The notes under the pieces are model-generated. The model did not search any database and was not told the origin of the DNA. It was given only the letters and a program-made list of their open reading frames with translations. This document shows, one piece after another, positions 22,799-56,216 of a stretch of DNA of 64,000 nucleotides. The translations under genes were made by a program, and so were the position numbers. The DNA comes from a virus. Numbering within the stretch: position 1 is the stretch's first letter; each line of letters opens with the position of its first letter. Location: IMG/VR virus record IMGVR_UViG_3300045988_163768; one strand, written 5' to 3'.

Positions 22799-23095
22799 TT
22801 AATTCTCCTTTTCTTCTAAATCTTCTTTGCTATTATCGTTTTCTATAGGAATTTGAAGAGTTATTTTTTCAGATTCTTCTTTTTTTTGCTGCATATTATT
22901 TTGATATTGAGAATAACATTTATAATATGCAAGTTGAATTTCTTCAAATATATCTTTTATAACAAAATATTTTGCACTAATTGGCAAATTTGTTGAATTA
23001 ATTTCATTACATAAATTACTATGCATCTTTATAATTAAATCTTGTTCCATAAGTTTTCTCCTTCTTATATTGTTTGTTACTTCAATCCTGTGCAA
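22799..23095 (-). CDS. hypothetical protein
   Basis: 98-aa ORF that overlaps the end of the giant upstream gene. Confidence 0.3.
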   Translation of the reverse strand: MHRIEVTNNIRRRKLMEQDLIIKMHSNLCNEINSTNLPISAKYFVIKDIFEEIQLAYYKCYSQYQNNMQQKKEESEKITLQIPIENDNSKEDLEEKEN

Positions 23096-26000: not shown

Positions 26001-27831
26001 AAGCTTGCAAAGTAATAGGTTTCTCTAATGATTTAGAAGCTGGACTAATTCCATTTTCATTATATTTAAAAGTTTGGATACCATTATTAATAACTAAAGT
26101 ATATAAACCTTCTGTGCTTAAAGAATTAGTTAAAGTGATTGATGCTGATCCTAGGAAGGTTTTACTTCCATTTCTAATATAATATACCGCACATTTATAA
26201 GTTTTATTTCGTGTAATAGAACGCACATCTATATGAATGATCTTATCTTTTTCTACTCTTGTTATTGTATTATATTTCTCTATAACAGCATTATATCTGT
26301 CTAATTCATCCTTTACAACTTCGTAATATTTTGTACCATCACTAATAGCTTTTTCTAAATCTTTTTTATTCTTAACTGCGTTATTATATTCTTCATTTTC
26401 CGCGGTCGTCTCTTCAAGATTACTAAAACCGCCTATGCTATCAACAGTAATCCAAGAGAATTCATAATTACTCGTATCTTTTATTTGTTCTCCATTCATT
26501 AAACAAGTTAAAGTAGGATAACCAACATCATAATAAAACTGCTCTCCTAAATCAGATACTAATGAAAATTGATAATTAGAATTATAATTTTTAATCACAA
26601 TCTGTTTTTCTAAAGCACTCTCATCGTAAATAACAACGCATTTATATTTAGTCTCTTTTGCAATTACATCTTCAAAACAAACTTTATATTCAGAATCAAG
26701 AGCAACATATTCTACTATCGCGGCTTCTCCATTTTCTTCATTTGCATCTTGAATAATATTATACTTATTTAGACATCTCCAACCCTGACCGCCATACTTA
26801 TGATAACCTAAACTTTTTGATGTAATATTAATATCTTCCACAAACCAATAGAAAGGAAGTTTTTGAGAATTATTATCTATAACTTTACCTTTAACTCTAA
26901 CTTGTGCTTGTAGCTTTTTATAATCATTTTTATTTGCATTTTTATTGAAAAAATTACCTTGCGGAGTTATGATACTTAAACTACAACCATTAATATCCTC
27001 CTCGCTAAGTTTTGCAACTCCATAAAATTGCAAATCTTCTATAAAAATATCATCAATATAATTCTCCTTGCTATTCGGGAAATTATAACAAAATAATTTA
27101 ATTTCTTTTATAGATTTGAAATTTATTCCATCTATATCAAAAATACCATATTGTTTGGTTGAGTAAACCAATTTATAAGGATTACCTGTCATTTTATCCA
27201 CATCTATAACATAATTTCTCGTTATAATTTTATTAGTCGCATTATCTAAAAAATCTAACGCAAAGATAATACCATAGTTACCTCTACTCTGTTGTTCTGG
27301 CGGCAGTAGTGTCCTTACTTTCATGCTGCAAACTAAATTTGCAGATTGTTTTATATATTCTTCCGCAGATGCACTATCTACTTTTATTAAATTCTTATTT
27401 GGAAAATCTCTACTATATAAGATTTTCTCTTGTTCGCCTTTTGAATATGAACTTAATCCAAAAACAGTAGATGAAGAAATACAGTTATTACCAATAGGTT
27501 CATAACTTTCCTCTCCTTCTGAAGTAGCTATATAGTTAATACCTAGTTTTTTTGTTGTACCTAAAATAGTCTTATCTTTTTTCATATCGTTACCAGGAAT
27601 TAGTATATAGACATTAGAACCATCTGTATAAGTGGTATCAGAATTTCCTGAGTATGCATAAAAAATGCTATCTTGATACTTTACTTTGTATTTACCAATA
27701 GTAGCATCTATACACGAAAGAATCGTTGCTTGAATTGTCTTATCATAACTAGCTTGATTTACTGCTTTCTTTACGATAATATCAATAGCTTTGCAAATAT
27801 TGCTTTCTATGTTATTGCTCAACTTATACAC
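23077..27831 (-). CDS. giant tail-tip / host-adhesion protein (Dit-Tal-like position, immediately after the tape-measure gene)
   Basis: 1584 aa, beta-rich. The C-terminal third carries three roughly 100-aa repeat modules with a recurring SG(S)IGGW(K/T)I..(S/T)L motif. Confidence 0.5.
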   Translation of the reverse strand: MYKLSNNIESNICKAIDIIVKKAVNQASYDKTIQATILSCIDATIGKYKVKYQDSIFYAYSGNSDTTYTDGSNVYILIPGNDMKKDKTILGTTKKLGINYIATSEGEESYEPIGNNCISSSTVFGLSSYSKGEQEKILYSRDFPNKNLIKVDSASAEEYIKQSANLVCSMKVRTLLPPEQQSRGNYGIIFALDFLDNATNKIITRNYVIDVDKMTGNPYKLVYSTKQYGIFDIDGINFKSIKEIKLFCYNFPNSKENYIDDIFIEDLQFYGVAKLSEEDINGCSLSIITPQGNFFNKNANKNDYKKLQAQVRVKGKVIDNNSQKLPFYWFVEDINITSKSLGYHKYGGQGWRCLNKYNIIQDANEENGEAAIVEYVALDSEYKVCFEDVIAKETKYKCVVIYDESALEKQIVIKNYNSNYQFSLVSDLGEQFYYDVGYPTLTCLMNGEQIKDTSNYEFSWITVDSIGGFSNLEETTAENEEYNNAVKNKKDLEKAISDGTKYYEVVKDELDRYNAVIEKYNTITRVEKDKIIHIDVRSITRNKTYKCAVYYIRNGSKTFLGSASITLTNSLSTEGLYTLVINNGIQTFKYNENGISPASKSLEKPITLQALTFTIYNNLGQPIDDEVAKHCKIKWIVPSKNTMLKISSDYNNVKDEDLINNTTTYNNITTLTYGIEDKYSVNKVRNNIQLAVEYKEMNLIAETNFTFVKEGEPGTNGTDIVCKIVPNVKDGEPIPVYPILTKSGANYSFNFNKKDNASNFKIEIWKDGEIVFSGSTTSGNTTVVWSVLKNKYGLDYGNSSGTDYSFIQINPQNGNVSLISTNGKPLPWDDHSGVANIIKATVKYDGITYYATMPIIVAEIYDDNYKVNLKDYTGFRYVIYNADGRKPKYDNATPFTLEVKKRMQEANGYVDISINSKTNYTWDRKGSILEYHQSSGINDLTCWEEKSSLHLIDISPTNIPINQRSYKPVDDYDGQCVNNGIVCTIKDETNESKIIANIYIPVHLYLNRFNNAAINDWDGNSVNVNSDGGFILSPQVGAGVKDNNNAFTGIVMGKVQEANQNNIEIGLFGYNKGQRNIFLDAETGKAVFGVNNGGQIILNPSEGKAEIKSGNYNDSGEQKGGMLIDLTTPKINFGTGNFSVNSSGYLTAKGGGSIAGWKIGNTALTSDNNKVSFNSLSEKADGTSIVIKAGDYFTVDFNGKIKAAKGILGSGTSPITIGKGEGTSEGKSALYSKKTSKDSSSDGFYLGTDGFALGNRHDTWVKDEAKTVSSFQVDTDGTVYMKEGYIGGSDQGNPPLRITESSIRYKKTSYNEEKNEGFYLGPSGIGLGQGKFTVNNKGKLTATSGSIGGWTINDSSLTGKDDGEKMTLSPTTGINFNSVFTVDQNGVLNATSGSVGGWTLGKEFLKGGNLTLDNTGAITGKNWSITADGVAKFTNEASFSNISATGGSVAGKIVGSGINGAHLNNTSVAKEKFDDNVKTWIQDLIADRVTILKALNVDTKSGGYLHVGIEANRVVMGNVRFEGGIELEGEDGRSGTGVDGSVSCITEISVDNAEFDEKTKKVTVNLTKKTQTLTFVKGICTGLK

Positions 27832-27927: not shown

Positions 27928-30900
27928 TTAACGTTTAGTATCATATGCGTGTTGACTTGCATAATTTACTAAATTTTTAAATGCCTTTTCAATTTCTCCA
28001 GAATTTTGAACATTCGGGAAAGAAGCTTCTATTTGGACTTTCTGGTCAATAGTCAAATCTTGAGATGCGGAAAAGCCGCTCAAAGAAGTAGTAGTCTGAG
28101 CTAGTAGCCCAATCAGTCTATCCATCATAGATGCATTAATTGTATCTAAAACACTGTCTAAACTTCTAACAACATTCATAGCAGATAAGAAATTTTTAGT
28201 ATCTTCTTTATTCAAAACTAATTCTTTTTGATGAAGAATACCAACTTTTCCCTCATTTCCGTTCCATGCTCCAGTGTATCCGCCAGTATCAAATTTCTTG
28301 ATATCATCTTTCGTAAGCCACCCGAATGGACCATCATTACTCTGAACATGAATAGGCTTTTTAGCTCCCTTTTCAATCTGAGTAATCGTACCAGGTTTAT
28401 TCTGTCCAGCTCCTCTATTTCCTGAAGGTTCAGCTCCTTCAGACGTATAATAATATCTTTTTCCTTTTAGTAATTTAACCTTATCTCCAATTTTAAATTT
28501 CTTACTACCTTCGTCCATGTCAACTGCACTTGCTGGAGTATCAGAAGGATCCGCTTTGACATCAACGATTGTATTCTTTCCTTCACCTTTATTACTTTTG
28601 TTATTCTTTTTATTATCTCCGCTTTTGCCATTTTCAGCAGCCTCTTTATCTGCTGCTTCTCTCGCTTCCTTATCCTTCTGTTGCTTTAATTTATTAGCTT
28701 CTGTAACCGCAGAAATAGCAGCTGCCGCAACACCTCTATAAGCTTCTTCTAACTGTTTTACTTCTTGAAGTACATCTTGAACAGCTTCTAATTGAGCCTT
28801 GTATTTTTCAAGTAACTTATCATTTTCCTCAAGAAGCTCTTTAGCTTTTTGGATATTCATATCATATCCTTCAGCAATCTTGTTGAAATCTACCCCTGAA
28901 CGTTCGCTTGTCTCACTCAAGTTATTTCTATAAGTAAGTAAAGCTTCATCTAGCTGTTTAAAGGCATTTTCACAAGTTGGAATAAAACCGCCTTCTCCCG
29001 CAAATTTATCAGTCATTTGCTGAACGCCTGAATTCCATTGCGGAATCATGCTCTCCATTAAGATTCTCTTTTCCTCATCTGACATTGCTTGGAAGTTAGC
29101 TACATCGGTATTATACTTTTTAGCTAATTCTTGGAAAGTTGTATCCTGAAGATTCTGCTTAACTTGCTCATTTTGTTCAACTAAGTTATTTATTATTTCG
29201 CCATATTGTTCTGCTAATAATTTTTTCTTTTCTTCTCTTTCTTCATCTGCAAGGGTAGTATCTGAATACAGTTCTAATAATTTCTGTTGGAATTCAGAAT
29301 AAGTGCTATAGATTTCATCTAAATTACTCTTATACTTGTCTTTATCCAAATTATAGAGAGAATTTTGAGCTTCTAATAGCTCTTGCTGTGCTTGAGCTAT
29401 ACTGTCTTCATCAGAAACATATTGATAACTATAATTTCCTTGAGAATCACGTCTCAATCTCATTTTTGACTTATTTTTTTGAGCATCTTGCAAAGCAATT
29501 TCTTTTAAAGCTATTTCGTATAGTGCATTAGCACGATCTACGTCATATTGAGTCAATTTTTCCTTAGCTTTAAGCATTTCAATTTGCTCATTCATCAGGT
29601 TATTCAATTTCTTTTGAGCAGATAAACTACTTGTATTATCAATAGAATCTAAATACTTATTTTGAAGTTTTTGAATTTCAAAAGAAGAATTGATACTATC
29701 CAAATACATATCTGCATTTTTGTTAATTAAATCCCATTGATCTTTAACATGATCTAATCCGCTTCCATTGGTTAGTCTCTTGTTAATATCTTCAAAGATT
29801 TTATTTATAGTATTTTTGTATTCTTCAATAACTTCCTCAATAGAACTCTTAACTTTTGAGTTTAAATCAGTAACCGCTTTTTCATAATTAGCTTTATATT
29901 CTTTCCAAGCTTTGGAATCTTTTTCTTCGTTATCCATTCTCTGTTTCCAGAATTCTACCTGTTTTCTTGCAAAGTCCAAATTATCATTATTATTTTTTCT
30001 TTGCATCTCATAATATTTAGCTAATTGAGAATAAGCTTTATCGCCATAAATTAAACCAATTACATCTTTATCATGGTCAATTAAATCAGATATAAATTCA
30101 TATTGTTCTGATTGTTCGTCTAGTTTTTCTTGAGCTTTATCTATTGCACTTAAATAAGTCTCTTCAATATCCTTTGATATTTGTGCATAATTTTCTAACG
30201 CGGTTTCCGCATTTTTTTCATACTTCTCTAAATCTTCATAAGCTTTAGCAAGGTTATCTCCATAAATAGTTGATTTTCCGCCAGCTTCCATAATTTCAAT
30301 TTCACTTTTAGTTTTATTAAGCTGATCTGTTAAAGCTTGAATCTCGCCTGTACCATCTGGCTTTACATATGAACTAAAATTAGATAGTAAAGCGTTAGCT
30401 TGACCCGCGAAGTCATCATCTTTTATGCCATCAATAACTTTCTTTTTAAAAGCATTAAAATCTCTCTCTGCTTGAGCTGTATCAAGAGCTAAGTCAACTT
30501 TTAAAGTAAACTTCTTAATTCTTACTTCTGTAGCTTTATCTTCTATTTCTTGCTGTTGTTTTTCTATCTCTTTTTCATCTGCATTTAACTCTTCATATTT
30601 GCTAAGAATCTTTTTAAATTTCTCATAATCCTTTTTTGCAGCTTCAACTGTTTGCTTATATTTCTTTTGCTCTTCTTTGGACATGCCATTATATTTAGTA
30701 ATCATTTTATTGACATTATCCATTTTAGTTTGCATAATTTTAAAATAATTAGTTATGTCTCCATCTGCGTTAAAAGTGACTCCTTCTGCTTTAAGTGCAG
30801 ATTTATACGTACTAGACCTAATTTTAGCTACCTCTATTTTTGTAGCATACGCTTCTTTTTGCTTTTCTAATAAATCTAACTGTTCTTGAAGATTTTTAGT

Positions 30901-33900
30901 TAGTTCTTTACCAGCAAGCTTTTCTTGTTTTTTCTGTAAAGCATCTAAGTCTTTTGTGATATCTTTTATTTGAAGATCTATGTCGTGATATACTTCAGCC
31001 TCATCTTGCAATAAATCCATCGTATCTGCTTGTGCATCTGATGAAGAGCCTTTTCCTCCACTACCACCTTTTCCACCTTTACCACTTTTATCTTTTTCAA
31101 AAGGTGTTGAACCACCTAAACCAGATTTTGCACTATCGAGGGCTTTTTTGGTTGAACCAGCATTTTCATACAAAGTTGCTTGTAATGCTCTCATTCTAGA
31201 AATGCTTTGTTCATAAGTGGAAATATCTAGCTCAAGATCACTTATCCACTCATCTATTTCTGGTAAAGAAGCAGAAGATTCAACCGGATCGACTCCTTTA
31301 AAATCTCCCTTATTTGTGGTAGCTGTAAAGTTCGAACCTCCTGTTCCTCCACCTCCAACATTCACTTTCGAAACATCAGTTTTGATTCCTTTAGGCATAT
31401 TTTTAATTTGGTTAGCCACTTTACTTGCCTGTTCGCCTACCGCAGAAACCGAAGTAACCATATTAGAAGAATTTTCCTTAGCTGACGTTGCTGCATCAGA
31501 TAAAGATTGTGCTAAGTTATGAGCTGCATCATCTGAAACATTCGCAGTAATACGATTATATTCATCCATATTACCTGACATCGCGGCAGCTACTGCTTTA
31601 TTAGCATCAGTTTCTTCTAAACCTAACTTCATTAAATAATTAGTTAGTTGTTGACGCCCATTAGAAATTTCCTCTATTTGTTCTTTAGTTAATTTTACTC
31701 CACCTTCAGCAACAGACTTAGCCATCGCTAATTCGGCTTCAGCAGATTCTTTTTTTGCAGTCAATAGTTGAATCTCATTTTCTATTCTAGCGTTAGTAGA
31801 TTCTACATCGCCATCAAGGATACTTTCTTGATTACCTAATGCATCTTTAACAACATCTTCTTGAAGTTGAATTTGTCCATCTGCCATTACCTGGGCACCA
31901 TCTAGTATCTCAGGGAAAACTTCTGCTAATTTTTTAGCATCTTCAGATGCAACGATATATCCCTCTCCAATCATCATCGCAGCTTCTCTAATTTTATCAG
32001 ATTCACTTAGAACAGAATCACCAATGCTTAAGATTTCTTCAACCCCAGCTAAATCAATTTTTAATTCCCAATCAGTATCCTCTATTTCTTTCTTTGTATC
32101 TGAAACAGCGTTTTGATATTCATTATATTTTTCTGTAACTGCTTCTAATTCAACTTGAGCATTACTAAGCTCATCTAGTTGTTCTTTGCTAAGAGAACCT
32201 TCTTTCTCTCTTATATCCTCTAGCTGATTGATATGCATAGTTAATTCAGTTTTTCTCTGTGCATATCCTTCTAATATTTTTTTATTAGAATCTAATTCCG
32301 CTTCTAATTTTTGTTTTTCTAACTCGATAACTTCAGTATAATAATTAGAATCTGCTTCTCTTAAATCTTCTAGGTATTCTATTTGTCCAAGAACACCTCT
32401 AGTAGCAGCTTCTTCAAACTCTTGAGCCGCACTTACATTTTTATTATAGATGCCTGCGGTTTCCTCTAACATCTGATTAAAAGTCTCTAAAGTAGCCTTT
32501 CCTTCTTTGGTTTTACTTAATTTATCTAAGCTACCTTCACTAGCCAACTGAGAAGAAATATCTCCAATTACAGATTTTTTATCTAATTCTTCTTGATACT
32601 CTTCTTGTTTTTTCGTTAGTTCTTCAATTTCTTTTTTCTCTGTGTTAGCTGCAATAGATGCTCCATCTTTAATATCATCATATTTAGCATCAATCTCATC
32701 AAGACTCTTTAATAAAGTTTCTAAAGAAAGTCCTGTTTGAGTAGAGTATTCTTTTAAAGATTCAAAAGCATTACTACCTATAACATTTCGTAGCTTTTTG
32801 CCATCATCCGCTAATAATACATCAATTCCGCCTTCTTTTTCTATCTCCGCTTTCATTTTATCAAAAGCTTCTTTATTTTCACTTAAAGCTTCACCGAAAG
32901 CTTGCTTAGTAGCGAAACCTAATGTATCTGTCTTTCTATAATACTGTTCGACAATATTATAGTAATAGTCAACATATTCTGAACCAGCTTCTTCTAACAA
33001 AGGAATCTGTTTTAAAGCGTTATTATACGCGTCTGTTAAACTTTTAGAAACTTCACCAGAAGAATTTTCCCATTTCTTATTTACTGCTGATAGAGTATGC
33101 TCTAAGTTATTTACATAAGCACTTAAAGCTTCTCTCTGATCATAATTGATTCCAGTATTCTTTTTCGCTAGTAATTCTCTAATTTCAGAAATAGAGTATT
33201 CTACTTCAGCTTTATATTCCTTATAAGCTTTCTCATCGCCTAGTTGAAACTTAGCAACAGAGTCATCAAGAAGTATATCTTGAACTTTCCTTCCATTTCC
33301 AATATCTACTCCAGATACCTCTGCTAATTGGCTTCTATCTACTGACGCGTCTACCGATGCTGCGTCAAGTTCTTTACCATATGCGTCTTTTTTTGCGGCT
33401 TGTTCTGCGGCTTCTACTGTTTTCTTTTCCTCAGCTTTTGCAACTTTCTTTCTTAGCTCAAGCTGTGTTGCTAATGCCGCGTTTTGAGCTTCTAAGGTTC
33501 TTAATTCTTCCTTTTGTGCAAGAGTAAGTTCATCTGGAGAAATTTGATACAGTTCTTTTAATCTTTCTTGCGTCGTTTCTAATTTAGAATTTAATTCGTC
33601 TACTTCCTGTTGAGCCTTCTCATATTCTTCAAATTGACTCTCTAAAGCTTCTTTTGCTTCTTTTGCACTTACAGTCATTTTGTCTATAGCGAATACTACT
33701 ATCCCAATCGCTGCTGCCGCCGCCGCAGCCCAACCAATCCAAGAGGCTGAAAATAATGCTAAAAATGCTTCCCCCGCAGTTAAAGAAGAGCCAGCTAGAG
33801 CTGGAATTGCAGTTTGAGCCAAAGTTATAAGACCTGCTTGAAGTCCTTGAATCCCATTTATAAGAAGCGGTAAAGTAGAAAGCAAAATAGTAAAGGATTG

Positions 33901-36456
33901 TCCTAATTTCTCTGTTGTAGATAAAGATTCATCTGAAAAAACATCCCATACTCCTTTTAAACCAGCTATAGAAGAACCTATTTCTCCAATAGAACCCGCG
34001 ATGTCTAAAGCTGATTGAATAACCGCAGTATTTCTTACATCATCTATAAAGCTTTTCCATGCAGAGCGAGACTCATCTAACTTTTCTTTTACTTTTTCCC
34101 CTGTCCCTGCAGCGACATCTTGTGCAGTTTTCATAACCTTCTGTGCATCACTTGCCGCTTGACTAGCATAATCTTTACTTGCTTCTGTTACCTCTTTGAA
34201 AGCTTTGCTTAATTCTGGGTAAGTCGCAATTAATTCTCCTACCGATTTTTCAGCATTTCCTGTGAGTTCACTATACTCTTTTAATTTCTTATTAAAATTT
34301 TCATAAGCACTTGCGACTTCTGGACTTGAAGAAACTATTTTTTTTACTTCATCATTATAATTTTTTACAGCGGTAGTTAAAGCTTCATAAGATTTAATTG
34401 CCTCTTCTTGCTTTGAATTATCTTTAGAAGCTTGTCTTTGATTAAAAGTAGCTAAAGTCAAAGCCCCAGCATAATTAGAGGCTTCTTTATTCAAACTTTT
34501 ATATTGTTTCTGAGTCTCATCTACTTGCTTCTTAATTTTGTCATATGTATCTGTATTTTTTGCTCCTTCGCCCTTCCCTCTAAGGCTATCTAAGTCTAAT
34601 TCTTCATTAGTTAAAGCCTTATAAAGATTTTTTGCAGCTTCCTCATTCTCTTCTAACTGTTTCTTTTGATTTTGCAAAGCATTTATTTGTTCAATAAAAC
34701 CGTTAGCAATGTTCTGTTGTTCAGTAGTAGCAACAGATCCTAAATCCACAATCTCTTGCTTCATATTTACTAATTCTTTAGTATCTTCGTCTAATGCAGA
34801 TAATCCTTTATACTGTTGTAGAATCTCTAACTGAGCATTAAGTTGTTCAGCATTAGATTTTACATTTTTAAAATTAGCTATAGTTGTAGAAATACCACCA
34901 GCGATTTGTTTACTAAATACTCTTACACCTAAAGATCCTAACTCAGCAAGAACAGTCTTACCACCGCCGATATTATCAACCAATGTTGCAATTTTATCTA
35001 CAACAAAAGTAATTCCATCAACAACTTCATTAATAGCTTCTGGCTTTAATAAAGAGTCATATAAATCCTCGAAAGTAGTTCTCATTCTTTGGATATGAGC
35101 TTCTGTTCTTTCAGAATAAATATCTTGTTGCTCTTCAAGAGTTCCCAATGCATTTTTAGAAGTGTCTAAAGCATCAGTGTACATATCCCAGTTATCAAAT
35201 AAAGCAATTAAGTTATTATACTGTCTCTTACCCGCGATTGCAACTGCTGCCGCTTGTCTTTGTTCGTCTGTCCAAGTACTCCACTTACCTGCTACTTCTT
35301 CAATAACATTTCCCATCTCTTTTAGATGACCATTCTCATCTAAGATGTCAATGCCCATTGTTTTCATCTTTCCAGAAACTTCACCAAGAGAAACTCCAAA
35401 TTCATCAACACCATCAACAGCTAGATCACCCATACGAGCATAAATTGTTTTTAAAGCTGTACCTACTGATTCTGGTGCTTGGCGGGTAACAGAAATAATA
35501 GTCGCAATCTGAGCATTTAACTGATCAAAGTCAACACCCATAGAACTTGCTGCGGAAGCCACTTTAGAAATAGCCATAGAAGATTCAGCCAAGTCTGACG
35601 CAGTTGTAGCTGCTACAGCCGCTAACTTATCTACATATTTTTCATAAACGTCCATTCCTTCAGCCGCAGCTTCATTAGCTACTTTATAACCATTCCAAAC
35701 CGCAGTTAAATATTCCGCAGCCTGTTCTGAGCTAATCTGAGATACATTCGCGGTTTTCTGAGTAATCTCAGCTTTAGCAAGAGCATTTTCATCTGTATCA
35801 CCCTGTTGATAGTAAATTAAAGCTCCTTCAGTTATATCTCTCGTACTTGCAGATAGTTCCTGGGCGGTTTGACTTGCAGATTCCGCGAAATCACGCATCT
35901 CTTCCGCAGATTTGCCAGTTACGACTCTAATATTATTTAATGAAGTATCTAATTTCTCAACATAATTAACTGCTTGTTGTACATTATTAGTTAATGCGTT
36001 CATAGCTCCAGACGCAATATTCCATTTAATAGTATTAGACAAAGTTGTAGCCATATTTTCTAAGAAGCTATGAGTTTGTTTTAACTGCATATTAGTAGTT
36101 AAAACCTGAGTTGTCATATTTTTAAATGCAGTTTGTCCTGCCGAACCCGCACTATTAAAATCATTATAAATTTTGTTTATATCTAAATTTTTTAATTCGT
36201 TATTAAATTTAGAAACATTTAATGTTCCTAAATTTGCGTTAAAAGCTTTATCTAACGCTTTTTGAACTTGACTAGCAGATTCTTTTATCTGGGTTAATCT
36301 GCTATTGGCTTCGCTTAAATCCATACCTTTATTTAAACTCATCAAATCACTAGAAGTCATCTTTTGAATTTCTTCTAATGACTTCTTAATGGTTGATAAA
36401 CCGCTTTGGTCTGTATTAAAGCCAACTGTAAAATCAATACGATTTGTAGCCGCCAT
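27928..36456 (-). CDS. tail tape measure protein
   Basis: 2842 aa with long coiled coils, a hydrophobic central segment (WIGWAAAAAAAIGIVVFAI) and Gly-rich segments. Positioned between the chaperone-like gene and the tail-tip gene. Confidence 0.8.
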   Translation of the reverse strand: MAATNRIDFTVGFNTDQSGLSTIKKSLEEIQKMTSSDLMSLNKGMDLSEANSRLTQIKESASQVQKALDKAFNANLGTLNVSKFNNELKNLDINKIYNDFNSAGSAGQTAFKNMTTQVLTTNMQLKQTHSFLENMATTLSNTIKWNIASGAMNALTNNVQQAVNYVEKLDTSLNNIRVVTGKSAEEMRDFAESASQTAQELSASTRDITEGALIYYQQGDTDENALAKAEITQKTANVSQISSEQAAEYLTAVWNGYKVANEAAAEGMDVYEKYVDKLAAVAATTASDLAESSMAISKVASAASSMGVDFDQLNAQIATIISVTRQAPESVGTALKTIYARMGDLAVDGVDEFGVSLGEVSGKMKTMGIDILDENGHLKEMGNVIEEVAGKWSTWTDEQRQAAAVAIAGKRQYNNLIALFDNWDMYTDALDTSKNALGTLEEQQDIYSERTEAHIQRMRTTFEDLYDSLLKPEAINEVVDGITFVVDKIATLVDNIGGGKTVLAELGSLGVRVFSKQIAGGISTTIANFKNVKSNAEQLNAQLEILQQYKGLSALDEDTKELVNMKQEIVDLGSVATTEQQNIANGFIEQINALQNQKKQLEENEEAAKNLYKALTNEELDLDSLRGKGEGAKNTDTYDKIKKQVDETQKQYKSLNKEASNYAGALTLATFNQRQASKDNSKQEEAIKSYEALTTAVKNYNDEVKKIVSSSPEVASAYENFNKKLKEYSELTGNAEKSVGELIATYPELSKAFKEVTEASKDYASQAASDAQKVMKTAQDVAAGTGEKVKEKLDESRSAWKSFIDDVRNTAVIQSALDIAGSIGEIGSSIAGLKGVWDVFSDESLSTTEKLGQSFTILLSTLPLLINGIQGLQAGLITLAQTAIPALAGSSLTAGEAFLALFSASWIGWAAAAAAAIGIVVFAIDKMTVSAKEAKEALESQFEEYEKAQQEVDELNSKLETTQERLKELYQISPDELTLAQKEELRTLEAQNAALATQLELRKKVAKAEEKKTVEAAEQAAKKDAYGKELDAASVDASVDRSQLAEVSGVDIGNGRKVQDILLDDSVAKFQLGDEKAYKEYKAEVEYSISEIRELLAKKNTGINYDQREALSAYVNNLEHTLSAVNKKWENSSGEVSKSLTDAYNNALKQIPLLEEAGSEYVDYYYNIVEQYYRKTDTLGFATKQAFGEALSENKEAFDKMKAEIEKEGGIDVLLADDGKKLRNVIGSNAFESLKEYSTQTGLSLETLLKSLDEIDAKYDDIKDGASIAANTEKKEIEELTKKQEEYQEELDKKSVIGDISSQLASEGSLDKLSKTKEGKATLETFNQMLEETAGIYNKNVSAAQEFEEAATRGVLGQIEYLEDLREADSNYYTEVIELEKQKLEAELDSNKKILEGYAQRKTELTMHINQLEDIREKEGSLSKEQLDELSNAQVELEAVTEKYNEYQNAVSDTKKEIEDTDWELKIDLAGVEEILSIGDSVLSESDKIREAAMMIGEGYIVASEDAKKLAEVFPEILDGAQVMADGQIQLQEDVVKDALGNQESILDGDVESTNARIENEIQLLTAKKESAEAELAMAKSVAEGGVKLTKEQIEEISNGRQQLTNYLMKLGLEETDANKAVAAAMSGNMDEYNRITANVSDDAAHNLAQSLSDAATSAKENSSNMVTSVSAVGEQASKVANQIKNMPKGIKTDVSKVNVGGGGTGGSNFTATTNKGDFKGVDPVESSASLPEIDEWISDLELDISTYEQSISRMRALQATLYENAGSTKKALDSAKSGLGGSTPFEKDKSGKGGKGGSGGKGSSSDAQADTMDLLQDEAEVYHDIDLQIKDITKDLDALQKKQEKLAGKELTKNLQEQLDLLEKQKEAYATKIEVAKIRSSTYKSALKAEGVTFNADGDITNYFKIMQTKMDNVNKMITKYNGMSKEEQKKYKQTVEAAKKDYEKFKKILSKYEELNADEKEIEKQQQEIEDKATEVRIKKFTLKVDLALDTAQAERDFNAFKKKVIDGIKDDDFAGQANALLSNFSSYVKPDGTGEIQALTDQLNKTKSEIEIMEAGGKSTIYGDNLAKAYEDLEKYEKNAETALENYAQISKDIEETYLSAIDKAQEKLDEQSEQYEFISDLIDHDKDVIGLIYGDKAYSQLAKYYEMQRKNNNDNLDFARKQVEFWKQRMDNEEKDSKAWKEYKANYEKAVTDLNSKVKSSIEEVIEEYKNTINKIFEDINKRLTNGSGLDHVKDQWDLINKNADMYLDSINSSFEIQKLQNKYLDSIDNTSSLSAQKKLNNLMNEQIEMLKAKEKLTQYDVDRANALYEIALKEIALQDAQKNKSKMRLRRDSQGNYSYQYVSDEDSIAQAQQELLEAQNSLYNLDKDKYKSNLDEIYSTYSEFQQKLLELYSDTTLADEEREEKKKLLAEQYGEIINNLVEQNEQVKQNLQDTTFQELAKKYNTDVANFQAMSDEEKRILMESMIPQWNSGVQQMTDKFAGEGGFIPTCENAFKQLDEALLTYRNNLSETSERSGVDFNKIAEGYDMNIQKAKELLEENDKLLEKYKAQLEAVQDVLQEVKQLEEAYRGVAAAAISAVTEANKLKQQKDKEAREAADKEAAENGKSGDNKKNNKSNKGEGKNTIVDVKADPSDTPASAVDMDEGSKKFKIGDKVKLLKGKRYYYTSEGAEPSGNRGAGQNKPGTITQIEKGAKKPIHVQSNDGPFGWLTKDDIKKFDTGGYTGAWNGNEGKVGILHQKELVLNKEDTKNFLSAMNVVRSLDSVLDTINASMMDRLIGLLAQTTTSLSGFSASQDLTIDQKVQIEASFPNVQNSGEIEKAFKNLVNYASQHAYDTKR

Positions 36457-49829: not shown

Positions 49830-50800
49830 TTATATTATCCTAAAGGCTTTTTATCCTTTAGTTCTTATACTTCTTTTTCGTATAAGCTTAGCATATCTTT
49901 TCACCCTCGTTTTACGTTAGGTTTGACTATTGGTGAGATAGTCTCAAGCATTCCTATATAATGCTGTGTTGCGGACTCGTGGATGGATTATATCTTTTCA
50001 CCATCTATGCGTTGCCCCTGACTATAGTTCCTATAGCCTTCGGTTCGGATTAGCATCTCAGCCTCCCCGCTTAATTCCGCAATAATCATATATTAAATTT
50101 CTTTAATATACGGCAAAAATTTTTTATTTTATTTTATGATACTTACTTCCATTTTGGATAAAATCTAAATAACTAGCATATTTTCTTTCCAAATAAATAC
50201 TTGAATCTTTATAAATCCAATTTAAAAAATTTAAAACATCTTCATAAGCTCCAAAAACATATCTTTTAGCTCCATTTTCTCTATGAACATCGAAAATTTT
50301 ATTTTCTTTATTTATATTTTCAATAGATTTCAAAAAACCTTTTATAAAATTTTCAGTTCCGATTATACCTATTTGAAAACAACTTTCTGTATTTGTAAAC
50401 CATCCATCGCCATCAAAATACCCTCTTATAAAATGTCTAATTAAATGTTTTGGTACTTGTTTTTCATTTGGAAAATCAAGAATTAATGATTTTTTAGGAA
50501 CGCACCCTTTATCTATTAAATCCTGTTTACATTGAGCATTCCTAAAACTCATTCTATAAGATTTTGTTCTTTCTCTATAGCTAATTTTATTAGTTATATT
50601 CATAAAATCTCTAAATTTTTCTATATGTTTTAAATCTTTTTTTGCTAGTCCTAGTTCTATTTTATCTTCTTTAGAACCAACACTTCCATCCGCATATAAA
50701 AAGCCTAACCAATAAGCTTTTTCTTCAGTATCAATTTTATTAAAATTAGTTAGGACGTTTTTTGCACTCATTTTTAATGCTCCTCCTTTACTTATAATTA
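49830..50800 (-). mobile_element. group I intron interrupting terL, carrying a LAGLIDADG homing endonuclease ORF
   Basis: A terL N-terminal piece and a C-terminal piece are separated by about 1 kb. That gap holds a double-LAGLIDADG ORF plus about 320 nt of structured, GC-richer non-coding sequence (49830-50123). Boundaries are approximate. Confidence 0.6.
50124..50771 (-). CDS. LAGLIDADG homing endonuclease (double motif)
   Basis: WLGFLYADGSV and RGYFDGDGWF are two LAGLIDADG motifs; 215 aa. Confidence 0.8.
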   Translation of the reverse strand: MSAKNVLTNFNKIDTEEKAYWLGFLYADGSVGSKEDKIELGLAKKDLKHIEKFRDFMNITNKISYRERTKSYRMSFRNAQCKQDLIDKGCVPKKSLILDFPNEKQVPKHLIRHFIRGYFDGDGWFTNTESCFQIGIIGTENFIKGFLKSIENINKENKIFDVHRENGAKRYVFGAYEDVLNFLNWIYKDSSIYLERKYASYLDFIQNGSKYHKIK

Positions 50801-52350: not shown

Positions 52351-53514
52351 TTATTTATTTTTCTTATTTCGACAACATTTACATATACTGTAAAAATGAT
52401 CTTTACTTGTCTTATTCTTTGAAAAAAATTTATTATGAGCTAATTTGATTTCCCCACAACGGGAACATTTTTTCCATTTTCCTTTTTTCTGAGTTGTGTA
52501 ATACCAAATTAAATAGTCTTCCTGAGCTTGCTCTGACAATAGCTTAGGTATTTTATTCCGCCATAAAGATGATATATATTCCACTGAATGTTTTACATTG
52601 TGTTTTTGATTCAACAGACTCTGAATTTCAAGATTTTGTTTTCCGTCTATTTTATAAATCAAGAGGTCATAATACATTGGATAACTATCTCTTAGAGTCT
52701 TCTCTATTAATGTATCTAAATCCTCCATTAAAAAATATGAATCACTGTAGAATTTTCCCCATGCATCTTCTTTTAGGCGGGAATAGTTACATAATAATGC
52801 AGATATGTGCTTAGGATTAAAAAAAGAAACTAAGCTATTATCTTCAATTTCATCATTTCCGCTAATAGAAACATTTTCATCAAAATCAATTTTGCTAAAA
52901 CTTTTAATTGCGTTCATACAATAAATTGGCGGCTTGTATGCACTTCTAATTACATATTGATCTTGTCTCATAGCAATAAGTTGCTTTTTTAATAAAAATT
53001 TCTTTTTACCAACTGCTTTTTTCTCAGCTTTTTCGACTTCCGCAATCGCGTCTACAAGTTGCTTTAACTCAGGGATTTCCGCAATATCCTGTTGAGTTAT
53101 TTGAAATTTAGGTGTAAAAATAATATTCTTATCATTGGCGATCATATTATAAATGCCATCTTCGCCATTCTCTAAGCGACCAACTAATCCTTCAAAAGAA
53201 GTTTCTCTTTTATTAACTGTGACCATATGATTATCAGTTAATATTTGCTTCTGTTTCCGCTCTTGTTTATCCATAGCAAAAATAATGTAATCTGATAATA
53301 TTTCTAAATATTTAGGTGTTAATTGCTCAGAAGGAGTCTTATCTATAATTTTTTTAACTAATTCATTCCGCTCTTCAGGAGTTTCTAAAGAATAATCTAG
53401 TTTAATAGTAGTTTGCATATTTTCTTCTTCGATTTGTTTTTCTGTTATTTTTTTTTCTTCTTCTAAAACATTATTCTCCTCAAAAGCCTTATCTTCTAAT
53501 GTTATTGGTGTCAT
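52351..53514 (-). CDS. hypothetical protein with a C-terminal zinc ribbon; first gene of the late operon
   Basis: 387 aa with C-terminal CSRCGE...CKCC. Confidence 0.35.
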   Translation of the reverse strand: MTPITLEDKAFEENNVLEEEKKITEKQIEEENMQTTIKLDYSLETPEERNELVKKIIDKTPSEQLTPKYLEILSDYIIFAMDKQERKQKQILTDNHMVTVNKRETSFEGLVGRLENGEDGIYNMIANDKNIIFTPKFQITQQDIAEIPELKQLVDAIAEVEKAEKKAVGKKKFLLKKQLIAMRQDQYVIRSAYKPPIYCMNAIKSFSKIDFDENVSISGNDEIEDNSLVSFFNPKHISALLCNYSRLKEDAWGKFYSDSYFLMEDLDTLIEKTLRDSYPMYYDLLIYKIDGKQNLEIQSLLNQKHNVKHSVEYISSLWRNKIPKLLSEQAQEDYLIWYYTTQKKGKWKKCSRCGEIKLAHNKFFSKNKTSKDHFYSICKCCRNKKNK

Positions 53515-53541: not shown

Positions 53542-53571
53542 ATTATACCACAAAAAAATTTTTTTGTCAAA
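53542..53571 (-). promoter_or_regulatory. late-operon promoter TTGACA-18-TATAAT (minus strand)
   Basis: Minus-strand TATAAT corresponds to plus-strand ATTATA at 53542-53547, and minus-strand TTGACA to plus-strand TGTCAA at 53566-53571. Confidence 0.5.
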
Positions 53572-53591
53572 TTTGATTAAAGCACTTTAAT

Positions 53592-53621
53592 TGGATTTTT
53601 TAAAAAATTTTTGTTATAATT
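53592..53621 (+). promoter_or_regulatory. divergent promoter for the SLOG/PARG operon
   Basis: TTGGAT, then an 18-nt spacer, then TATAAT at about 53616-53621. Confidence 0.4.
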
Positions 53622-53651
53622 ATTTTATAAATAAAACAAGAGGAAAAAGAA

Positions 53652-53999
53652 ATGAAAATTAGTATTCTTGGAAGTCGCGGTTTCGCAGATAATCGCCTAG
53701 TCTCCGCAACTATGGAAGATTTTATCCGCGAAACGCAATGTTATTTATTTACTGTTGTTTGCGGGAATACGGAGAAGAAGCTCTCGGAGTCTATTGGAAA
53801 AATATGGGCAGAAAATAATGGTGCTCCTATTGAATATGTATTTGATCGCAACATAGATAAATTAATTCAGAAAATGGTAGAAAATATTGATTTTGGTATA
53901 TTTTTTTATGACGGAAAAGATGCAATAATTAGAAAAATTATTATGAAAATGAAAATGAATGGAAAGCATGGTAAAGTAATTAAAATAGGAGGAAAATAA
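53652..53999 (+). CDS. DUF2493/SLOG-like Rossmann-fold nucleotide-binding protein (tentative)
   Basis: 115 aa. MKISILGSRGF...VVCGNTE...IWAENNGAPIEYVF...FFYDGKDAIIRKI...KHGKVIKI follows the DUF2493/YpsA-like pattern. Confidence 0.4.
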   Translation: MKISILGSRGFADNRLVSATMEDFIRETQCYLFTVVCGNTEKKLSESIGKIWAENNGAPIEYVFDRNIDKLIQKMVENIDFGIFFYDGKDAIIRKIIMKMKMNGKHGKVIKIGGK

Positions 54000-54000
54000 T

Positions 54001-54189
54001 ATGAATAATGAAGCAAAAAAGACAGTTGCAGGTTTGGTTCCGCGTGAAGCTTTTAGATTAGAAGTAATTAATAGTAGAAGAAATGAGATTATGGATGCTA
54101 TAGAAAGATATGCTAAAGCGGAAATGGTAATTCCAATCGCTTGGATTCAAGAATTAAAATATTATGAACAAGCAAATGCGATGTTCTAA
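54001..54189 (+). CDS. hypothetical small protein
   Basis: 62-aa ORF with an AGGAGG Shine-Dalgarno. Confidence 0.35.
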   Translation: MNNEAKKTVAGLVPREAFRLEVINSRRNEIMDAIERYAKAEMVIPIAWIQELKYYEQANAMF

Positions 54190-54209
54190 TAAAACGAGGA
54201 TGTTAATAG

Positions 54210-54962
54210 ATGAATAAAAAAGAAAGAGCTATTCAAGCCATAAATCATTTTTATAAAATGGAAAAAGAATATTCAGATAAAATCGCATGGTGTAACGCAA
54301 GAACTAAATATTATAGTGGTTTTGTGCCAGGTTCTATTGCAAATAAAATGAAGAAAATAAATGAAAAAAATCTTAATTATGAAATATGGGAAACTGATAC
54401 TGTTAATGCTATTAAAAAAGCTGTATCTGAATTTCCTGATAGTAAGATTGCCGCACTTAATTTTGCATCTTTTAAATATCCTGGCGGAGGCTTTTTAAAA
54501 GGAAGTAGTACTCAAGAAGGAAGCTTATGTCATAAGTCTATTCTTTATAATATTTTGTGGCGGCAAAGAGAAGATTTTTATGGAGAAAATAAAAACTTAA
54601 TAAATCGCGGTTTGTATTGGAATAGAGCGATTTATAGTCCAAACATTCTTTTTGAAGATTTTTATAATTGTGATATTATTACTTGTGCAGCCCCGAATAA
54701 AAAAGAAGCTAAGCGTAATGGGATAACAGATGAAGAAAATACTAAGGCTTTAAAAGAAAGAATCTCTTTTATTTTAGACATTGCGGCGAAAAATAAAATT
54801 GATGTTCTAATCTTAGGAGCTTTTGGATGCGGAGCTTTTGGTCAAGATCCTAATGAAGTTAAAAAGATATTTATGAAATTATCTAATAATTATATTTTTA
54901 AAAAAATAATTTTTGCTATCCCTAATGGATCTAATTTAGACGCTTTTCGGAGCCTTGTTTGA
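54210..54962 (+). CDS. bacterial-type poly(ADP-ribose) glycohydrolase-like macrodomain protein (DUF2263/TIGR02452-like)
   Basis: ALNFASFKYPGGGFLKGSSTQEGSLC matches the PARG signature LNFAS..PGGGF...(7)..QEE.LC, with QEG in place of QEE. LGAFGCGAFGQDP matches the downstream conserved motif. Confidence 0.65.
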   Translation: MNKKERAIQAINHFYKMEKEYSDKIAWCNARTKYYSGFVPGSIANKMKKINEKNLNYEIWETDTVNAIKKAVSEFPDSKIAALNFASFKYPGGGFLKGSSTQEGSLCHKSILYNILWRQREDFYGENKNLINRGLYWNRAIYSPNILFEDFYNCDIITCAAPNKKEAKRNGITDEENTKALKERISFILDIAAKNKIDVLILGAFGCGAFGQDPNEVKKIFMKLSNNYIFKKIIFAIPNGSNLDAFRSLV

Positions 54963-55478
54963 TATCGCGGGTAGTTTTTAAAGAGAAAATGAGAAATATT
55001 TTTATTTTTTTAAAATCCTCTTTATTTTATTTTATTTTAATTTGTTTAAAAAAATTTTTTGGAGAGATTTTTAATTCTCGTTTTTTGATTTTATTTTTAG
55101 ACTTTTAGATTTGAAAAAATTTTTGGAGAGAGAATTGTGGAGAACACTATCTTTTTATAAAAGTAAAAAATTTTAATCCTTTAATATACCCCGGCATTAT
55201 GTTTAAGTATGGTCTGTAGTTTGAGCATCTCTTTTGAGCAAGAAGCAACAAGACACCGCCTAACAAATAATTTTTCAAATCATTTTCCAAAGAGGATATG
55301 CTTTTTGTTCAGAAGAGTTTTGAACACATTATTTTAAGCAAAGAGGAGAAAGAGTTAAACTAATAAAATAAATTCTTTAAATAACTAAAATAAAGCAAGA
55401 AGATTAGAATTTTTATTGGCTATTGGTAGCTTGCCATCTATCGTCGGAGCGTACACTTTCGCAACGCTCCGAGAAGCC

Positions 55479-55750
55479 TGTCAATAGGCAAAATGCACAA
55501 ATTTTTGGCTAAATTTTTGTAAAAAATGCACAAAGATATTTTCCTAAAATGAACTTGTCAATAGGTAAAATTGTACAAAAATACGTGGAAAATTTTGTGC
55601 ATTATGTCTATTGACAAACCCTGTCAATAGTAAAAGTGTACAAAAATATATTCTCATTTTTGTGTAAAATGTCAATAGACAAAAAATGTCAATAGGCAAT
55701 CTGCACAAAGTTTTAAAGGAAAAATTGTGTAAAATGTCTATTGACAGAAT
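55479..55750. repeat. cluster of about 7 direct and inverted ~23-bp iteron-like repeats TGTCAATAG-N5/6-TG(C/T)ACAAA
   Basis: Copies at about 55479, 55557, 55592 (inverted), 55621, 55665, 55687 and 55724 (inverted); additional copies at 59426, 62806 and 62875. Confidence 0.7.
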
Positions 55751-55770
55751 GAGCTAAAGGTGCTATAATG
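55742..55770 (+). promoter_or_regulatory. promoter TTGACA-17-TGcTATAAT firing into an AT-rich ORF-free tract
   Basis: TTGACA at 55742-55747 (inside the last repeat) and an extended -10 TGCTATAAT ending at 55770. Confidence 0.5.
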
Positions 55771-55789
55771 AGAGGTTAAGCTTAAGACA

Positions 55790-56160
55790 AAAGAAAGATA
55801 ATAATAATAATAATAATAATACAATATTATAACAATACAATACATAAATATAATTAACAATAACATTATCTTATATTATTGTTAATCTTATCAATTATAA
55901 CTATATATAAAGAAGAAATATAATGATAATAATGTTAACATTGGTACTGTAATATCTTATAATAATTATAATAAGATAGTATAATAATAATAATAATAAG
56001 CTTATAAAATAATACTAAATAAAATAGTATGATAATATTTATATTATATTTTATTTTACTATTTATAAAAAAGATATAAATATATATATTTAAAACTAAC
56101 TATTAATCTTAATAACATGAGTAAATATGCATTAAAATAAATAAAAATACTGTAAATAAA
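55790..56160. repeat. extremely AT-rich (>90%) ORF-free tract with (AAT)n microsatellites
   Basis: (ATA/AAT)7 at 55801-55822 and again at 55981-56000; only a handful of G/C in about 370 nt. Confidence 0.6.
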
Positions 56161-56163
56161 GCT

Positions 56164-56192
56164 TGACAATGGTATAATAAGGTAGTATAATA
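56164..56192 (+). promoter_or_regulatory. promoter TTGACA-17-TATAAT
   Basis: TTGACA at 56164-56169, TATAAT at 56187-56192, then a GAGAGG Shine-Dalgarno. Confidence 0.5.
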
Positions 56193-56216
56193 ATACTTGA
56201 AAAGAGAGGTGATAAG

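Follow-up and report, generated by a model that had tools for sequence, protein, structure and literature searches.

Bacterial-type PARG proteins, represented by the structures from Thermomonospora curvata (TcPARG, 3SIG) and Deinococcus radiodurans (DrPARG, 5ZDA-5ZDG), share an N-terminal helical extension, a macrodomain core, a GGG-X7-Q-E loop, an LNFAS segment and a GAFGCG loop. The signature of the family is GGG-X6-8-QEE, with two consecutive glutamates (PMC8120803). The known substrates are PAR, 2'-OH-ADPr RNA and phosphate-linked ADPr ends, and not base-linked DNA adducts. In the E112A mutant of DrPARG hydrolysis is undetectable, while the binding of ADP-ribose is unaffected (Kd 2.02 vs. 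1.78 μM; PMC6445106). Since residues 100-110 of DrPARG read GGGFLGGAQAQ, E112 is the second glutamate of the signature. The entry 3sij in the PDB is titled as the E115A mutant of T. curvata PARG, and the catalytic-glutamate mutants of SCO0909 and DRB0099 lose the ability to reverse RNA-ADPr (PMC11833690).

In phages, two proteins have been demonstrated experimentally to act against host ADP-ribosylation systems. AdfN is a NADAR protein that counteracts DarTG1 (PMC11825919), and AdfM is a DarG2-like macrodomain that counteracts DarTG2 (PMC13309987). Viral gene neighborhoods that combine SLOG with Macro, NADAR or Nudix domains have been predicted computationally by Iyer, Burroughs, Anantharaman and Aravind, who proposed a counter-signaling function against ADPr-derived immunity (Iyer et al., 2022; PMC9503650); the word PARG occurs nowhere in their paper. 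In the SLOG protein YpsA (DUF1273), the nucleotide-binding GxD/E motif follows strand 2 and consists of G53 and E55 (PMC6459960).

The locus described here lies at positions 53652-54962 of the window, the 64,000-nucleotide stretch of phage DNA that was analyzed, and pairs a SLOG-fold protein with a PARG-type macrodomain. The macrodomain carries a glycine where TcPARG has E115 and DrPARG has E112, and it is encoded in a phage small-gene operon, whereas the cellular genes belong to an RNA-ligase/Pnk-type repair operon. Like AdfN and AdfM, it is a phage-encoded protein with an ADP-ribose-removing fold, apparently captured from cells, and a candidate reverser of host ADP-ribosylation. Unlike them, it belongs to the PARG-type branch, and while AdfN and AdfM need catalysis, the allele in the window lacks the catalytic residue. 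The arrangement also resembles the configuration of Iyer et al. (2022), in that a standalone SLOG protein with kinship to the YpsA-like clade is found beside a macro-superfamily protein in an early-looking region of a large phage. Here, however, it occurs in one phage species, the macro partner belongs to the PARG type and has lost its catalytic glutamate, and the SLOG nucleotide-binding motif is degenerate. The initial annotation regarded such a pairing as uncharacterized in phage, which has to be narrowed, as SLOG/Macro neighborhoods had already been predicted (PMC9503650) and AdfN and AdfM demonstrated; it holds insofar as no experimental study of a phage PARG-type protein was found in the literature searched.

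Organization of the locus and its phage

Three closely packed ORFs of 115, 62, and 250 aa occupy the plus strand at 53652-53999, 54001-54189, and 54210-54962, exactly where the initial annotation placed them. The gaps between them are 1 nt and 20 nt, respectively, in agreement with its description of a compact, co-directional unit at the beginning of the small-gene (early-type) region. This tight operon is kept throughout the phage species, and all three genes are under purifying selection among natural variants (dN/dS of 0.10-0.26 for the PARG gene, pN/pS of 0.16 and 0.12 for the 115-aa and 62-aa genes). A ribosome-binding site, GAGGA (53640..53644, plus strand), is located 7 nt ahead of the ATG at 53652. 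Further upstream, a candidate operon promoter was read by eye at 53591..53620 on the plus strand, comprising TTGGAT, an 18-nt spacer and the extended -10 element TGTTATAAT; the automated scan missed it because its -35 element matches at 3 of 6 positions only. On the minus strand, a perfect sigma-70-type promoter (TTGACA-17-TATAAT with TG, 53542..53570) points away from the operon and precedes a sigma-factor-like gene (52351-53514; phrog_5767, E 1.5e-51). The divergent partner, labeled the late promoter in the initial annotation, is therefore not simply that. The operon is probably expressed early, judging from its position and from promoter elements that resemble the consensus. Between 53400 and 57000 there is no match to Rfam, and no intrinsic terminator is predicted 3' of the operon.

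None of the three operon proteins matches PHROGs or PADLOC, and the 62-aa protein has no match in Pfam or NCBIfam either. Its homologues form 17 clusters, none of them below 73% identity, and 119 contigs carry the exact sequence. The ORF is a real gene, a species-restricted ORFan confined to this phage group. Joint acquisition of this gene with the PARG gene was rejected, as it is absent from other PARG loci.

The phage is large (about 135-140 kb), common in the human gut, and has structural genes of the Firmicutes-phage type; no close DNA relatives of the window were found in the phage collection. A crAss-like identity, prompted by giant ORFs, was rejected because the portal and prohead protease match proteins of Bacillus and Lactococcus siphophages; the YonG_N domain encoded by a neighboring gene also speaks against it.

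The 250-aa protein and its QEG signature

The 250-aa protein is clearly a bacterial-type PARG macrodomain by both sequence and fold, and the assignment is far beyond chance. It matches TIGR02452 (E 1.2e-50, 172.5 bits, cutoff 50) and Pfam PF10021 (E 3.4e-23, 83.1 bits, cutoff 23.5), and a phmmer search against solved structures retrieves DrPARG (3e-20) and TcPARG (1.5e-18). The AF2 model (pLDDT 91.9) is a macrodomain that also has the helical extension of PARG-type proteins at its N terminus. Foldseek places it closest to TcPARG (3sih, TM 0.86) and DrPARG (TM about 0.77) in the PDB, with E-values of 1e-16 to 1e-17, and TM-scores to ligand-bound and mutant entries range from 0.76 to 0.86. All these results concur with the PARG/DUF2263 identification made from the sequence, and the macrodomain fold on which it depended is present in the predicted structure. 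According to Pfam and Foldseek, the fold is PARG-type and neither DarG2-type nor NADAR. The protein thus differs from the anti-DarT hydrolases, which are of NADAR or DarG2 type with intact catalytic residues and take base-linked ADPr off DNA, and PADLOC does not recognize it.

The translation contains both strings quoted in the initial annotation, LNFASFKYPGGGFLKGSSTQEGSLC and GAFGCGAFG. The latter forms a glycine-rich loop (residues 203-211; 54816..54842, plus strand) that is conserved in the family and intact here, with G203, A204, G206, C207, G208, and F210 as invariant alignment columns. Overall, the protein keeps 27 of 27 invariant columns and matches 50 of the 52 positions conserved at 90% or more, departing at T101 and G104 only. 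The residues of the ADP-ribose-binding pocket are among those conserved, and binding is therefore predicted.

The signature loop (residues 92-104; 54483..54521, plus strand) reads GGG-X7-QEG and so departs from the PARG signature with both glutamates. The codons from 54513 are CAA GAA GGA, in which GGA at 54519-54521 takes the place of the GAA for the catalytic glutamate, and in the alignment under the QEE of DrPARG the first glutamate (E103) is kept while Gly104 occupies the second position. Codons and alignment thus bear out the substitution of QEG for QEE reported earlier. When the query was compared with its 120 best homologues, 119 of the 121 sequences had QEE, as did 78 of the 80 viral PARG loci, and all 52 distant homologues have the catalytic glutamate. 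The further claim that the protein cleaves ADP-ribose linkages is not upheld, as the protein lacks the very residue that DrPARG needs for activity, to judge from its E112A mutant. The Gly104 protein is probably no hydrolase, because the equivalent E112A mutant of DrPARG and the other catalytic-glutamate mutants are inactive, an analogy drawn from alanine mutants of two distant homologues (27-30% identity) to a protein in which the replacement is glycine. By the same analogy it probably binds ADP-ribose without cleaving it.

Gly104 does not originate from a sequencing error, as four sources together yield at least 36 contigs with the exact protein. Among the 15 cluster members listed of 106, about 50 contigs have a QEG allele and about 36 a QEE allele. 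The two forms come closest to each other in P0200 (QEE) and the window protein, which are only 4 residue changes apart. Nucleotide 311G is completely linked to 315C in 4 of 4 Gly alleles, with A and T at these positions in 3 of 3 Glu alleles, while the variants flanking 311/315 are shuffled among alleles. The glycine variant is thus a frequent polymorphism that arose once and has recombined onto several backgrounds, with QEE in sister genomes.

Distribution of the SLOG and PARG genes

The 115-aa protein shows a clear five-stranded, parallel-sheet Rossmannoid fold of the SLOG type, and its nearest viral structural matches carry DUF2493 or YspA SLOG annotation. Its score against PF10686 (20.3 bits, E 4.9e-4) falls below the threshold of 28.2, and a sequence search against the PDB returned only noise (E about 1). 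Homologues were collected by a word-indexed search (5 matches) and then by an exhaustive one; within the family, 6 of 54 members match PF10686 (best 3e-14), and P0126 and P0128 are fusions of YAcAr with a domain of this family. The protein is a divergent, minimal DUF2493/YAcAr-type SLOG domain, and the SLOG/DUF2493-like identification proposed earlier is sound, with a clear fold and remote sequence links, albeit with a Pfam score below cutoff. It shares the five-stranded Rossmannoid fold with DUF2493/YAcAr (PF10686) and YpsA, to which family members and the YAcAr fusions provide remote links. It differs from them in its minimal length, its sub-threshold Pfam score, and the erosion of the GGxxGAD/GxD and SxGT-type motifs. 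CGNTE replaces CGGxD, so that the acidic residue is kept and a glycine becomes asparagine; the GxD/E motif is absent here and present in only 14 of the 54 family members. The family has invariant motifs of its own, W52, G57-A-P, and G-K-H-G (residues 104-107).

The pairing of the SLOG and PARG proteins proposed earlier is, to judge from their distribution, not a conserved module. In three related lineages (L006/L007, L094, and L095) the 115-aa gene accompanies the sigma-like and YonG_N-like genes without a PARG gene in the flank examined, which spans about 2.2 kb downstream for L006 and about 4 kb to either side for L094 and L095. In L094, a DprA/YpsA-like SLOG gene lies directly upstream of the 115-aa homologue. 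A locus scan with a subset alignment of the family added only two new lineages. Conversely, an HMM of the 115-aa family matches just two of 80 viral PARG loci, both from this species, and 78 lack the gene. The recurrent neighbors of phage PARG genes are instead DUF2828/DUF7788, RNA ligase, metallophosphoesterase, an isochorismatase-family protein, DUF5662, and Sir2. SLOG and PARG genes of these two families are thus paired in this phage species only, and no SLOG-Macro linkage between them recurs across lineages.

Function of the operon and its significance

On balance, the locus is best explained, with somewhat better than even confidence, as an accessory operon that combines a resident SLOG gene with a binding-only PARG-type protein. 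It was probably put together from unrelated parts rather than through co-evolution of SLOG and PARG. The 115-aa gene would be the resident, as it occupies the same place opposite the sigma-like and YonG_N-like genes throughout a wider phage group; its relatives in other lineages adjoin a canonical SLOG domain or form a fusion with one. The PARG gene would be accessory, found at this position in this species only, and its family occurs widely among large phages and other mobile elements. Canonical QEE members hydrolyze ADP-ribose O-glycosidic and phosphate-linked adducts, and the phage QEE forms most plausibly act early in infection, either stripping ADP-ribosylation inflicted by the host or processing derivatives of ADP-ribose. 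The Gly104 protein, with its binding scaffold kept and the residue for hydrolysis lost, most likely holds ADP-ribose or ADP-ribosylated ends uncleaved, and may have some role in counter-defense.

Whether natural selection favors the Gly104 allele as a non-catalytic ADP-ribose binder is a separate matter. Such a protein could be a substrate trap or sponge for an ADPr-derived immune signal, or a shield or mark on ADP-ribosylated targets, and we regard its selection for this purpose as unlikely. The conserved binding scaffold, the micromolar affinity left in DrPARG E112A, and the frequency and single origin of the allele are consistent with it, and a phage NADAR counter-defense that needs no enzymatic activity has been mentioned (PMC11825919). 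The dN/dS among Gly alleles is 0.10-0.23, as low as among Glu alleles, which together with the intact Gly alleles on several backgrounds fits a still-useful protein better than a decaying null; due to recombination, however, most of this divergence may have built up on QEE backgrounds. Frameshifted or truncated versions do exist on the Gly background (P0198, P0199, P0204, and P0005, the last with a 5-nt deletion), and micromolar affinity is weak for a sponge. Broken alleles make up about 18% of the contigs with Gly and about 14% of those with Glu, rough figures because 15 of the 106 cluster members are covered, and decay peculiar to the Gly allele is thus unsupported. The same E-to-G change arose independently in L049, an unrelated contig of jumbo-phage size. 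Two such events can still be chance, since glycine is among only seven single-step neighbors of GAA, and no relatives of the L049 lineage, against which fixation of QEG could be judged, were found in the viral and metagenome collections. The coexistence of QEE and QEG in one species is what a neutral polymorphism of a dispensable gene predicts, and a tolerated null of such a gene is slightly more likely than a selected binding-only variant. The stronger version, a selected dead reader or sponge that coexists with active QEE forms through balancing or host-dependent selection, with convergent loss in L049, is distinctly doubtful.

The 115-aa SLOG protein might instead act alone in host takeover, as a YpsA-like division inhibitor or a protein-binding early factor, and have nothing to do with ADP-ribose. 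This seems rather improbable, as it is 11% identical to YpsA and, as noted in the literature, even YoqJ does not preserve the residues with which YpsA inhibits division.

In a two-component counter-defense against ADP-ribose-derived signals or adducts, the SLOG protein would sense or cut N-glycosidic bonds, leaving the ribose-linked moiety to the macrodomain. Both folds are confirmed, the operon is tight and conserved throughout the species, and viral SLOG and Macro/NADAR domains co-occur above chance, in shared neighborhoods and as fusions (Iyer et al., 2022; PMC9503650). The model is nevertheless quite unlikely. Three related lineages keep the SLOG gene without PARG in the flank examined and nearly all viral PARG loci are unpaired; the macrodomain lacks its catalytic glutamate and the SLOG protein its GxD/E signature. 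Moreover, no ADP-ribosyltransferase or sirtuin partner, or other NAD/ADPr gene, is found among the 33 larger ORFs of the window.

Macrodomains of other classes, such as the MacroD-type enzymes, hydrolyze their substrates without this glutamate. That the Gly104 protein likewise remains an active hydrolase, through E103 or substrate-assisted catalysis and possibly with altered specificity (e.g., for mono-ADPr on nucleic acids or small ADPr esters), is very unlikely, for although purifying selection goes on and E103 and the other conserved residues bar T101 are kept, mutation of the catalytic glutamate abolished PAR and RNA-ADPr activity in all PARG-type enzymes with data found, and none of the 52 distant homologues lacks it.

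The preferred reading, an accessory operon of unrelated parts with a PARG-type protein that binds but does not cleave, carries a caution for annotation: a strong family match does not here amount to enzyme activity, nor operon adjacency to a functional pair. PARG-type macrodomains are common in large phages, with 260 loci in IMG/VR. Should the QEE forms undo ADP-ribosylation placed by the host on RNA or DNA ends, a third class of hydrolases, after NADAR (AdfN) and the DarG2-type macrodomain (AdfM), would join the phage counter-defenses known against ADP-ribosylating immunity. A single abundant gut-phage species offers a natural experiment, in which an otherwise intact protein occurs with and without the catalytic glutamate, and comparison of the two forms would separate catalysis from mere binding.

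The operon and its surroundings

The window (GC ~30%) comes from a large phage genome. A long minus-strand block at ~10.2-53.5 kb holds genes with matches to terminase, portal, prohead-protease and tail families, together with two giant minus-strand ORFs of 1584 aa (23077-27831) and 2842 aa (27928-36456). Genes for DNA polymerase, NrdD, guanylate kinase and dUTPase lie in a plus-strand arm on the left. The giant ORFs first prompted a crAss-like identity, which proved wrong. The portal and protease genes resemble counterparts in large siphophages of Bacillus and Lactococcus, and the near relatives of the window are 134-141 kb contigs from human gut metagenomes; a search of an annotated phage collection gave no close DNA relative. 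A 215-aa minus-strand ORF between the terminase-like and YonG_N-like genes (50124-50771) probably encodes a LAGLIDADG homing endonuclease: its counterpart on the related contig L005 shows a faint LAGLIDADG_3 match, and a batch scan of the window's ORFs returned one match to this family at 1.7e-8 (which ORF of the batch is not given).

The structural block begins with a sigma-factor-like gene (52351-53514, minus strand; phrog_5767, E 1.5e-51), whose C-terminus weakly matches the endonuclease VII family (phrog_1035, E 5.9e-4). In front of it stands a perfect extended sigma-70 consensus promoter (TTGACA-17-TATAAT with an upstream TG; 53570-53542, minus strand). The gene may act as the on-switch for the late genes. 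Pointing away from this gene are three plus-strand ORFs of 115, 62 and 250 aa at 53652-54962, separated by gaps of 1 and 20 nt. A GAGGA ribosome-binding site lies ahead of this operon, and a candidate promoter was located by eye at 53591-53620 (plus strand; TTGGAT, an 18-nt spacer and TGTTATAAT), which the automated promoter scan missed because its -35 element is weak. All three genes are under purifying selection across natural variants (dN/dS 0.10-0.26 for the 250-aa gene; pN/pS 0.16 and 0.12 for the 115-aa and 62-aa genes).

Directly 3' of the 250-aa gene is an ORF-free stretch of 1.25 kb (54963-56216), ~96% conserved among relatives and with no Rfam match. It contains a GC-rich hairpin (near 55447-55475), at least eight copies of TGTCAATAG / CTATTGACA spaced roughly 65 nt apart (55479-55749), and plus-strand sigma-70-type sites, two of them perfect (55741-55769 and 56163-56191) and one matching at 11 of 12 positions (55935-55963). 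The arrangement resembles an array of operators or iterons combined with early promoters.

The SLOG-like protein and its pairing with PARG

The initial annotation assigned the 115-aa protein to the DUF2493/SLOG group. Its own match to PF10686 is sub-threshold, and the sequence link runs through its family. An exhaustive HMMER search gathered 67 representatives of a family of ~110-aa proteins; 6 of the 54 aligned members match PF10686 and no other family is matched. The only recurrent partner of these proteins is another SLOG domain, either fused, as in the homologues P0126 and P0128 (226-227 aa), where a canonical YAcAr domain precedes the 115-aa-family domain, or adjacent, as on contig L094, where a DprA/YpsA-like SLOG gene (3555-4004) lies immediately upstream of the family member (4052-4330). 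Both arrangements suggest that the family descends from the second, degenerated member of a SLOG tandem. The presumed nucleotide-binding signature of the YpsA clade, GxD/E (PMC6459960), is degenerate in the window protein (CGNTE) and kept in only 14 of 54 relatives, and the family invariants lie elsewhere (W52, G57-A-P, D80 and G-K-H-G at 104-107). Ligand binding is therefore possible, though not implied. An independent, YpsA-like part in host takeover is a reasonable, though less likely, alternative for this gene.

The three-gene layout is constant within the phage species. In three more distant phage lineages (L006/L007, L094 and L095), in which a 115-aa homologue (41-51% identical) and the sigma-like and YonG_N-like genes are syntenic with the window, no PARG-like gene was found within ~2.2 kb downstream of the homologue (L006) or ~4 kb on each side (L094, L095). 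Conversely, an HMM of the 115-aa family, run over 80 viral PARG loci (27 groups at 85% identity), matched two loci of the same species only, plus one marginally (E 0.008, without Pfam support). The 62-aa gene is an ORFan of the window's phage group. Since SLOG lineages occur without PARG and other PARG loci without SLOG, we conclude from gene content that the SLOG gene appears to be a conserved resident of the early position and the PARG gene an accessory one, found there in this species only among the flanks examined. The pairing proposed by the initial annotation is thus confined to one species, and the cooperative SLOG-PARG mechanism built upon it is quite improbable.

Recurrent neighbours of phage PARG genes (viral loci L014-L091) are DUF2828/DUF7788, RNA ligase PF09414, metallophosphoesterase, isochorismatase-family, DUF5662 and Sir2-family (sirtuin) genes, which hints at contexts of RNA repair and NAD metabolism over SLOG and recalls the D. 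radiodurans operon of RNA ligase, PARG and Pnk (PMC11833690). The homologue P0039, on a contig of 230 kb, adjoins RNA-polymerase-like genes. Among the homologues examined on cellular contigs, the nearest (P0012) lies in a run of small genes including RadC and YodL. A PARG-like gene (47% identical; 6001-6825) on the bacterial contig L096 (ERZ28615267 scaffold_1, 967,568 bp) belongs to a long run of small co-directional genes with RadC and YodL among them, a neighbourhood that looks like a prophage or conjugative-element region.

The PARG-type protein and its missing glutamate

Sequence and predicted structure place the 250-aa protein unambiguously in the bacterial-type PARG family, in agreement with the initial annotation. 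It matches PF10021 (E 3.4e-23) and, at 172.5 bits, TIGR02452 (cutoff 50), phmmer recovers the solved PARGs of D. radiodurans (3e-20) and T. curvata (1.5e-18), and the predicted model (pLDDT 91.9) superposes on these macrodomain structures at TM 0.76-0.86. Canonical members strip ADP-ribose from PAR chains, RNA 2'-OH groups and phosphorylated nucleic-acid ends (PMC11833690, PMC6445106). Given this activity and the position at the head of a small-gene region, the simplest reading is that a phage PARG would counter ADP-ribosylation by the host, or molecules derived from ADPr, consistent with what Iyer et al. 2022 (PMC9503650) proposed in general terms and in line with the demonstrated phage hydrolases AdfN (NADAR; PMC11825919) and AdfM (DarG2-type macrodomain; PMC13309987).

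The PARG signature is GGG-X6-8-QEE, in which the two consecutive glutamates are key residues (PMC8120803). The window protein reads GGG-FLKGSST-QEG. Residues 100-110 of the D. radiodurans enzyme (DrPARG) are GGGFLGGAQAQ (PMC6445106), so that its second glutamate is E112; in the alignment the glycine of the window protein (Gly104) falls exactly at this catalytic site, as had been remarked from the sequence. The DrPARG E112A mutant has undetectable PAR hydrolase activity and unchanged affinity for ADP-ribose (Kd 2.02 vs 1.78 uM; PMC6445106), and mutants of the "main catalytic glutamate" of SCO0909 and DRB0099 lose the reversal of 2'-OH RNA ADP-ribosylation (PMC11833690). PDB entry 3sij is titled as the E115A mutant of T. 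curvata PARG. Glutamate occupies the Gly104 position in 119 of 121 sequences (the query and its 120 best homologues), in 52 of 52 distant homologues and in 78 of the 80 viral PARG loci. The window protein agrees with the consensus at 50 of the 52 positions that are highly conserved; besides Gly104 it departs only by a conservative A101T, which is also seen in QEE relatives. Our reading is of an intact ADP-ribose pocket from which the catalytic residue has gone, and by analogy with the mutants the window allele probably binds ADP-ribose but does not cleave; a still-active Gly104 enzyme is very unlikely.

The glycine allele in the phage population

The identical Gly104 protein is present on 36 contigs from four sources (NCBI, JGI, ENA and Logan), which rules out QEG as an error. 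QEG occurs on ~50 contigs and QEE on ~36 (15 members listed of a 106-member cluster); the QEE allele P0200 is only 4 residues away from the window protein, and haplotypes differing at 8-13 residues also carry intact QEG proteins. Nucleotide 311 (G vs A) is fully linked with the synonymous site 315 (C vs T) in 7 of 7 sequenced alleles and the flanking variants are reshuffled, a pattern that indicates a single origin of the Gly allele followed by recombination. There is no sign in these sequences of relaxed constraint on Gly alleles, whose dN/dS (0.10-0.23) is similar to that of Glu alleles (0.15-0.21), a test that recombination weakens.

Frameshifted or truncated versions occur on the Gly background (P0198, P0199, P0204 and P0005, the last of which duplicates 14 N-terminal residues and has lost 5 nt, as at L005 5001-5744, where GCTAT is deleted) and on the Glu background (P0196 and L013, in which 4001-4752 is frameshifted near residue 70). 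Unless these are assembly errors in A/T-rich runs, they suggest that the PARG gene is often dispensable or inactivated in nature. An unrelated, intact viral PARG (45% identical; 3974-4756 of L049, IMGVR_UViG_3300001525_000584, 217,629 bp) has acquired QEG independently, with GGA in its glycine loop where GGG is expected; viral and metagenome collections yielded no relatives of it for a test of fixation. For the Gly allele, a null version tolerated in a dispensable accessory gene has a slight edge in probability over a variant selected for binding only.

Neither the folds and families nor the general idea is new. Contrary to the initial annotation, which held the pairing to be uncharacterised in phage, a computational study of 2022 had described viral SLOG/Macro neighbourhoods (PMC9503650), and phage ADP-ribosylhydrolase counter-defences were demonstrated experimentally in 2025-2026 (PMC11825919, PMC13309987); its claim stands as far as experiment goes, the literature searched containing no experimental study of a phage PARG-type protein. 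The distinctive feature of this locus is the frequent loss, apparently of single origin, of the catalytic glutamate from an otherwise intact protein in an abundant gut phage. The value of the Gly/Glu polymorphism is as a natural experiment; it does not amount to a new type of system.
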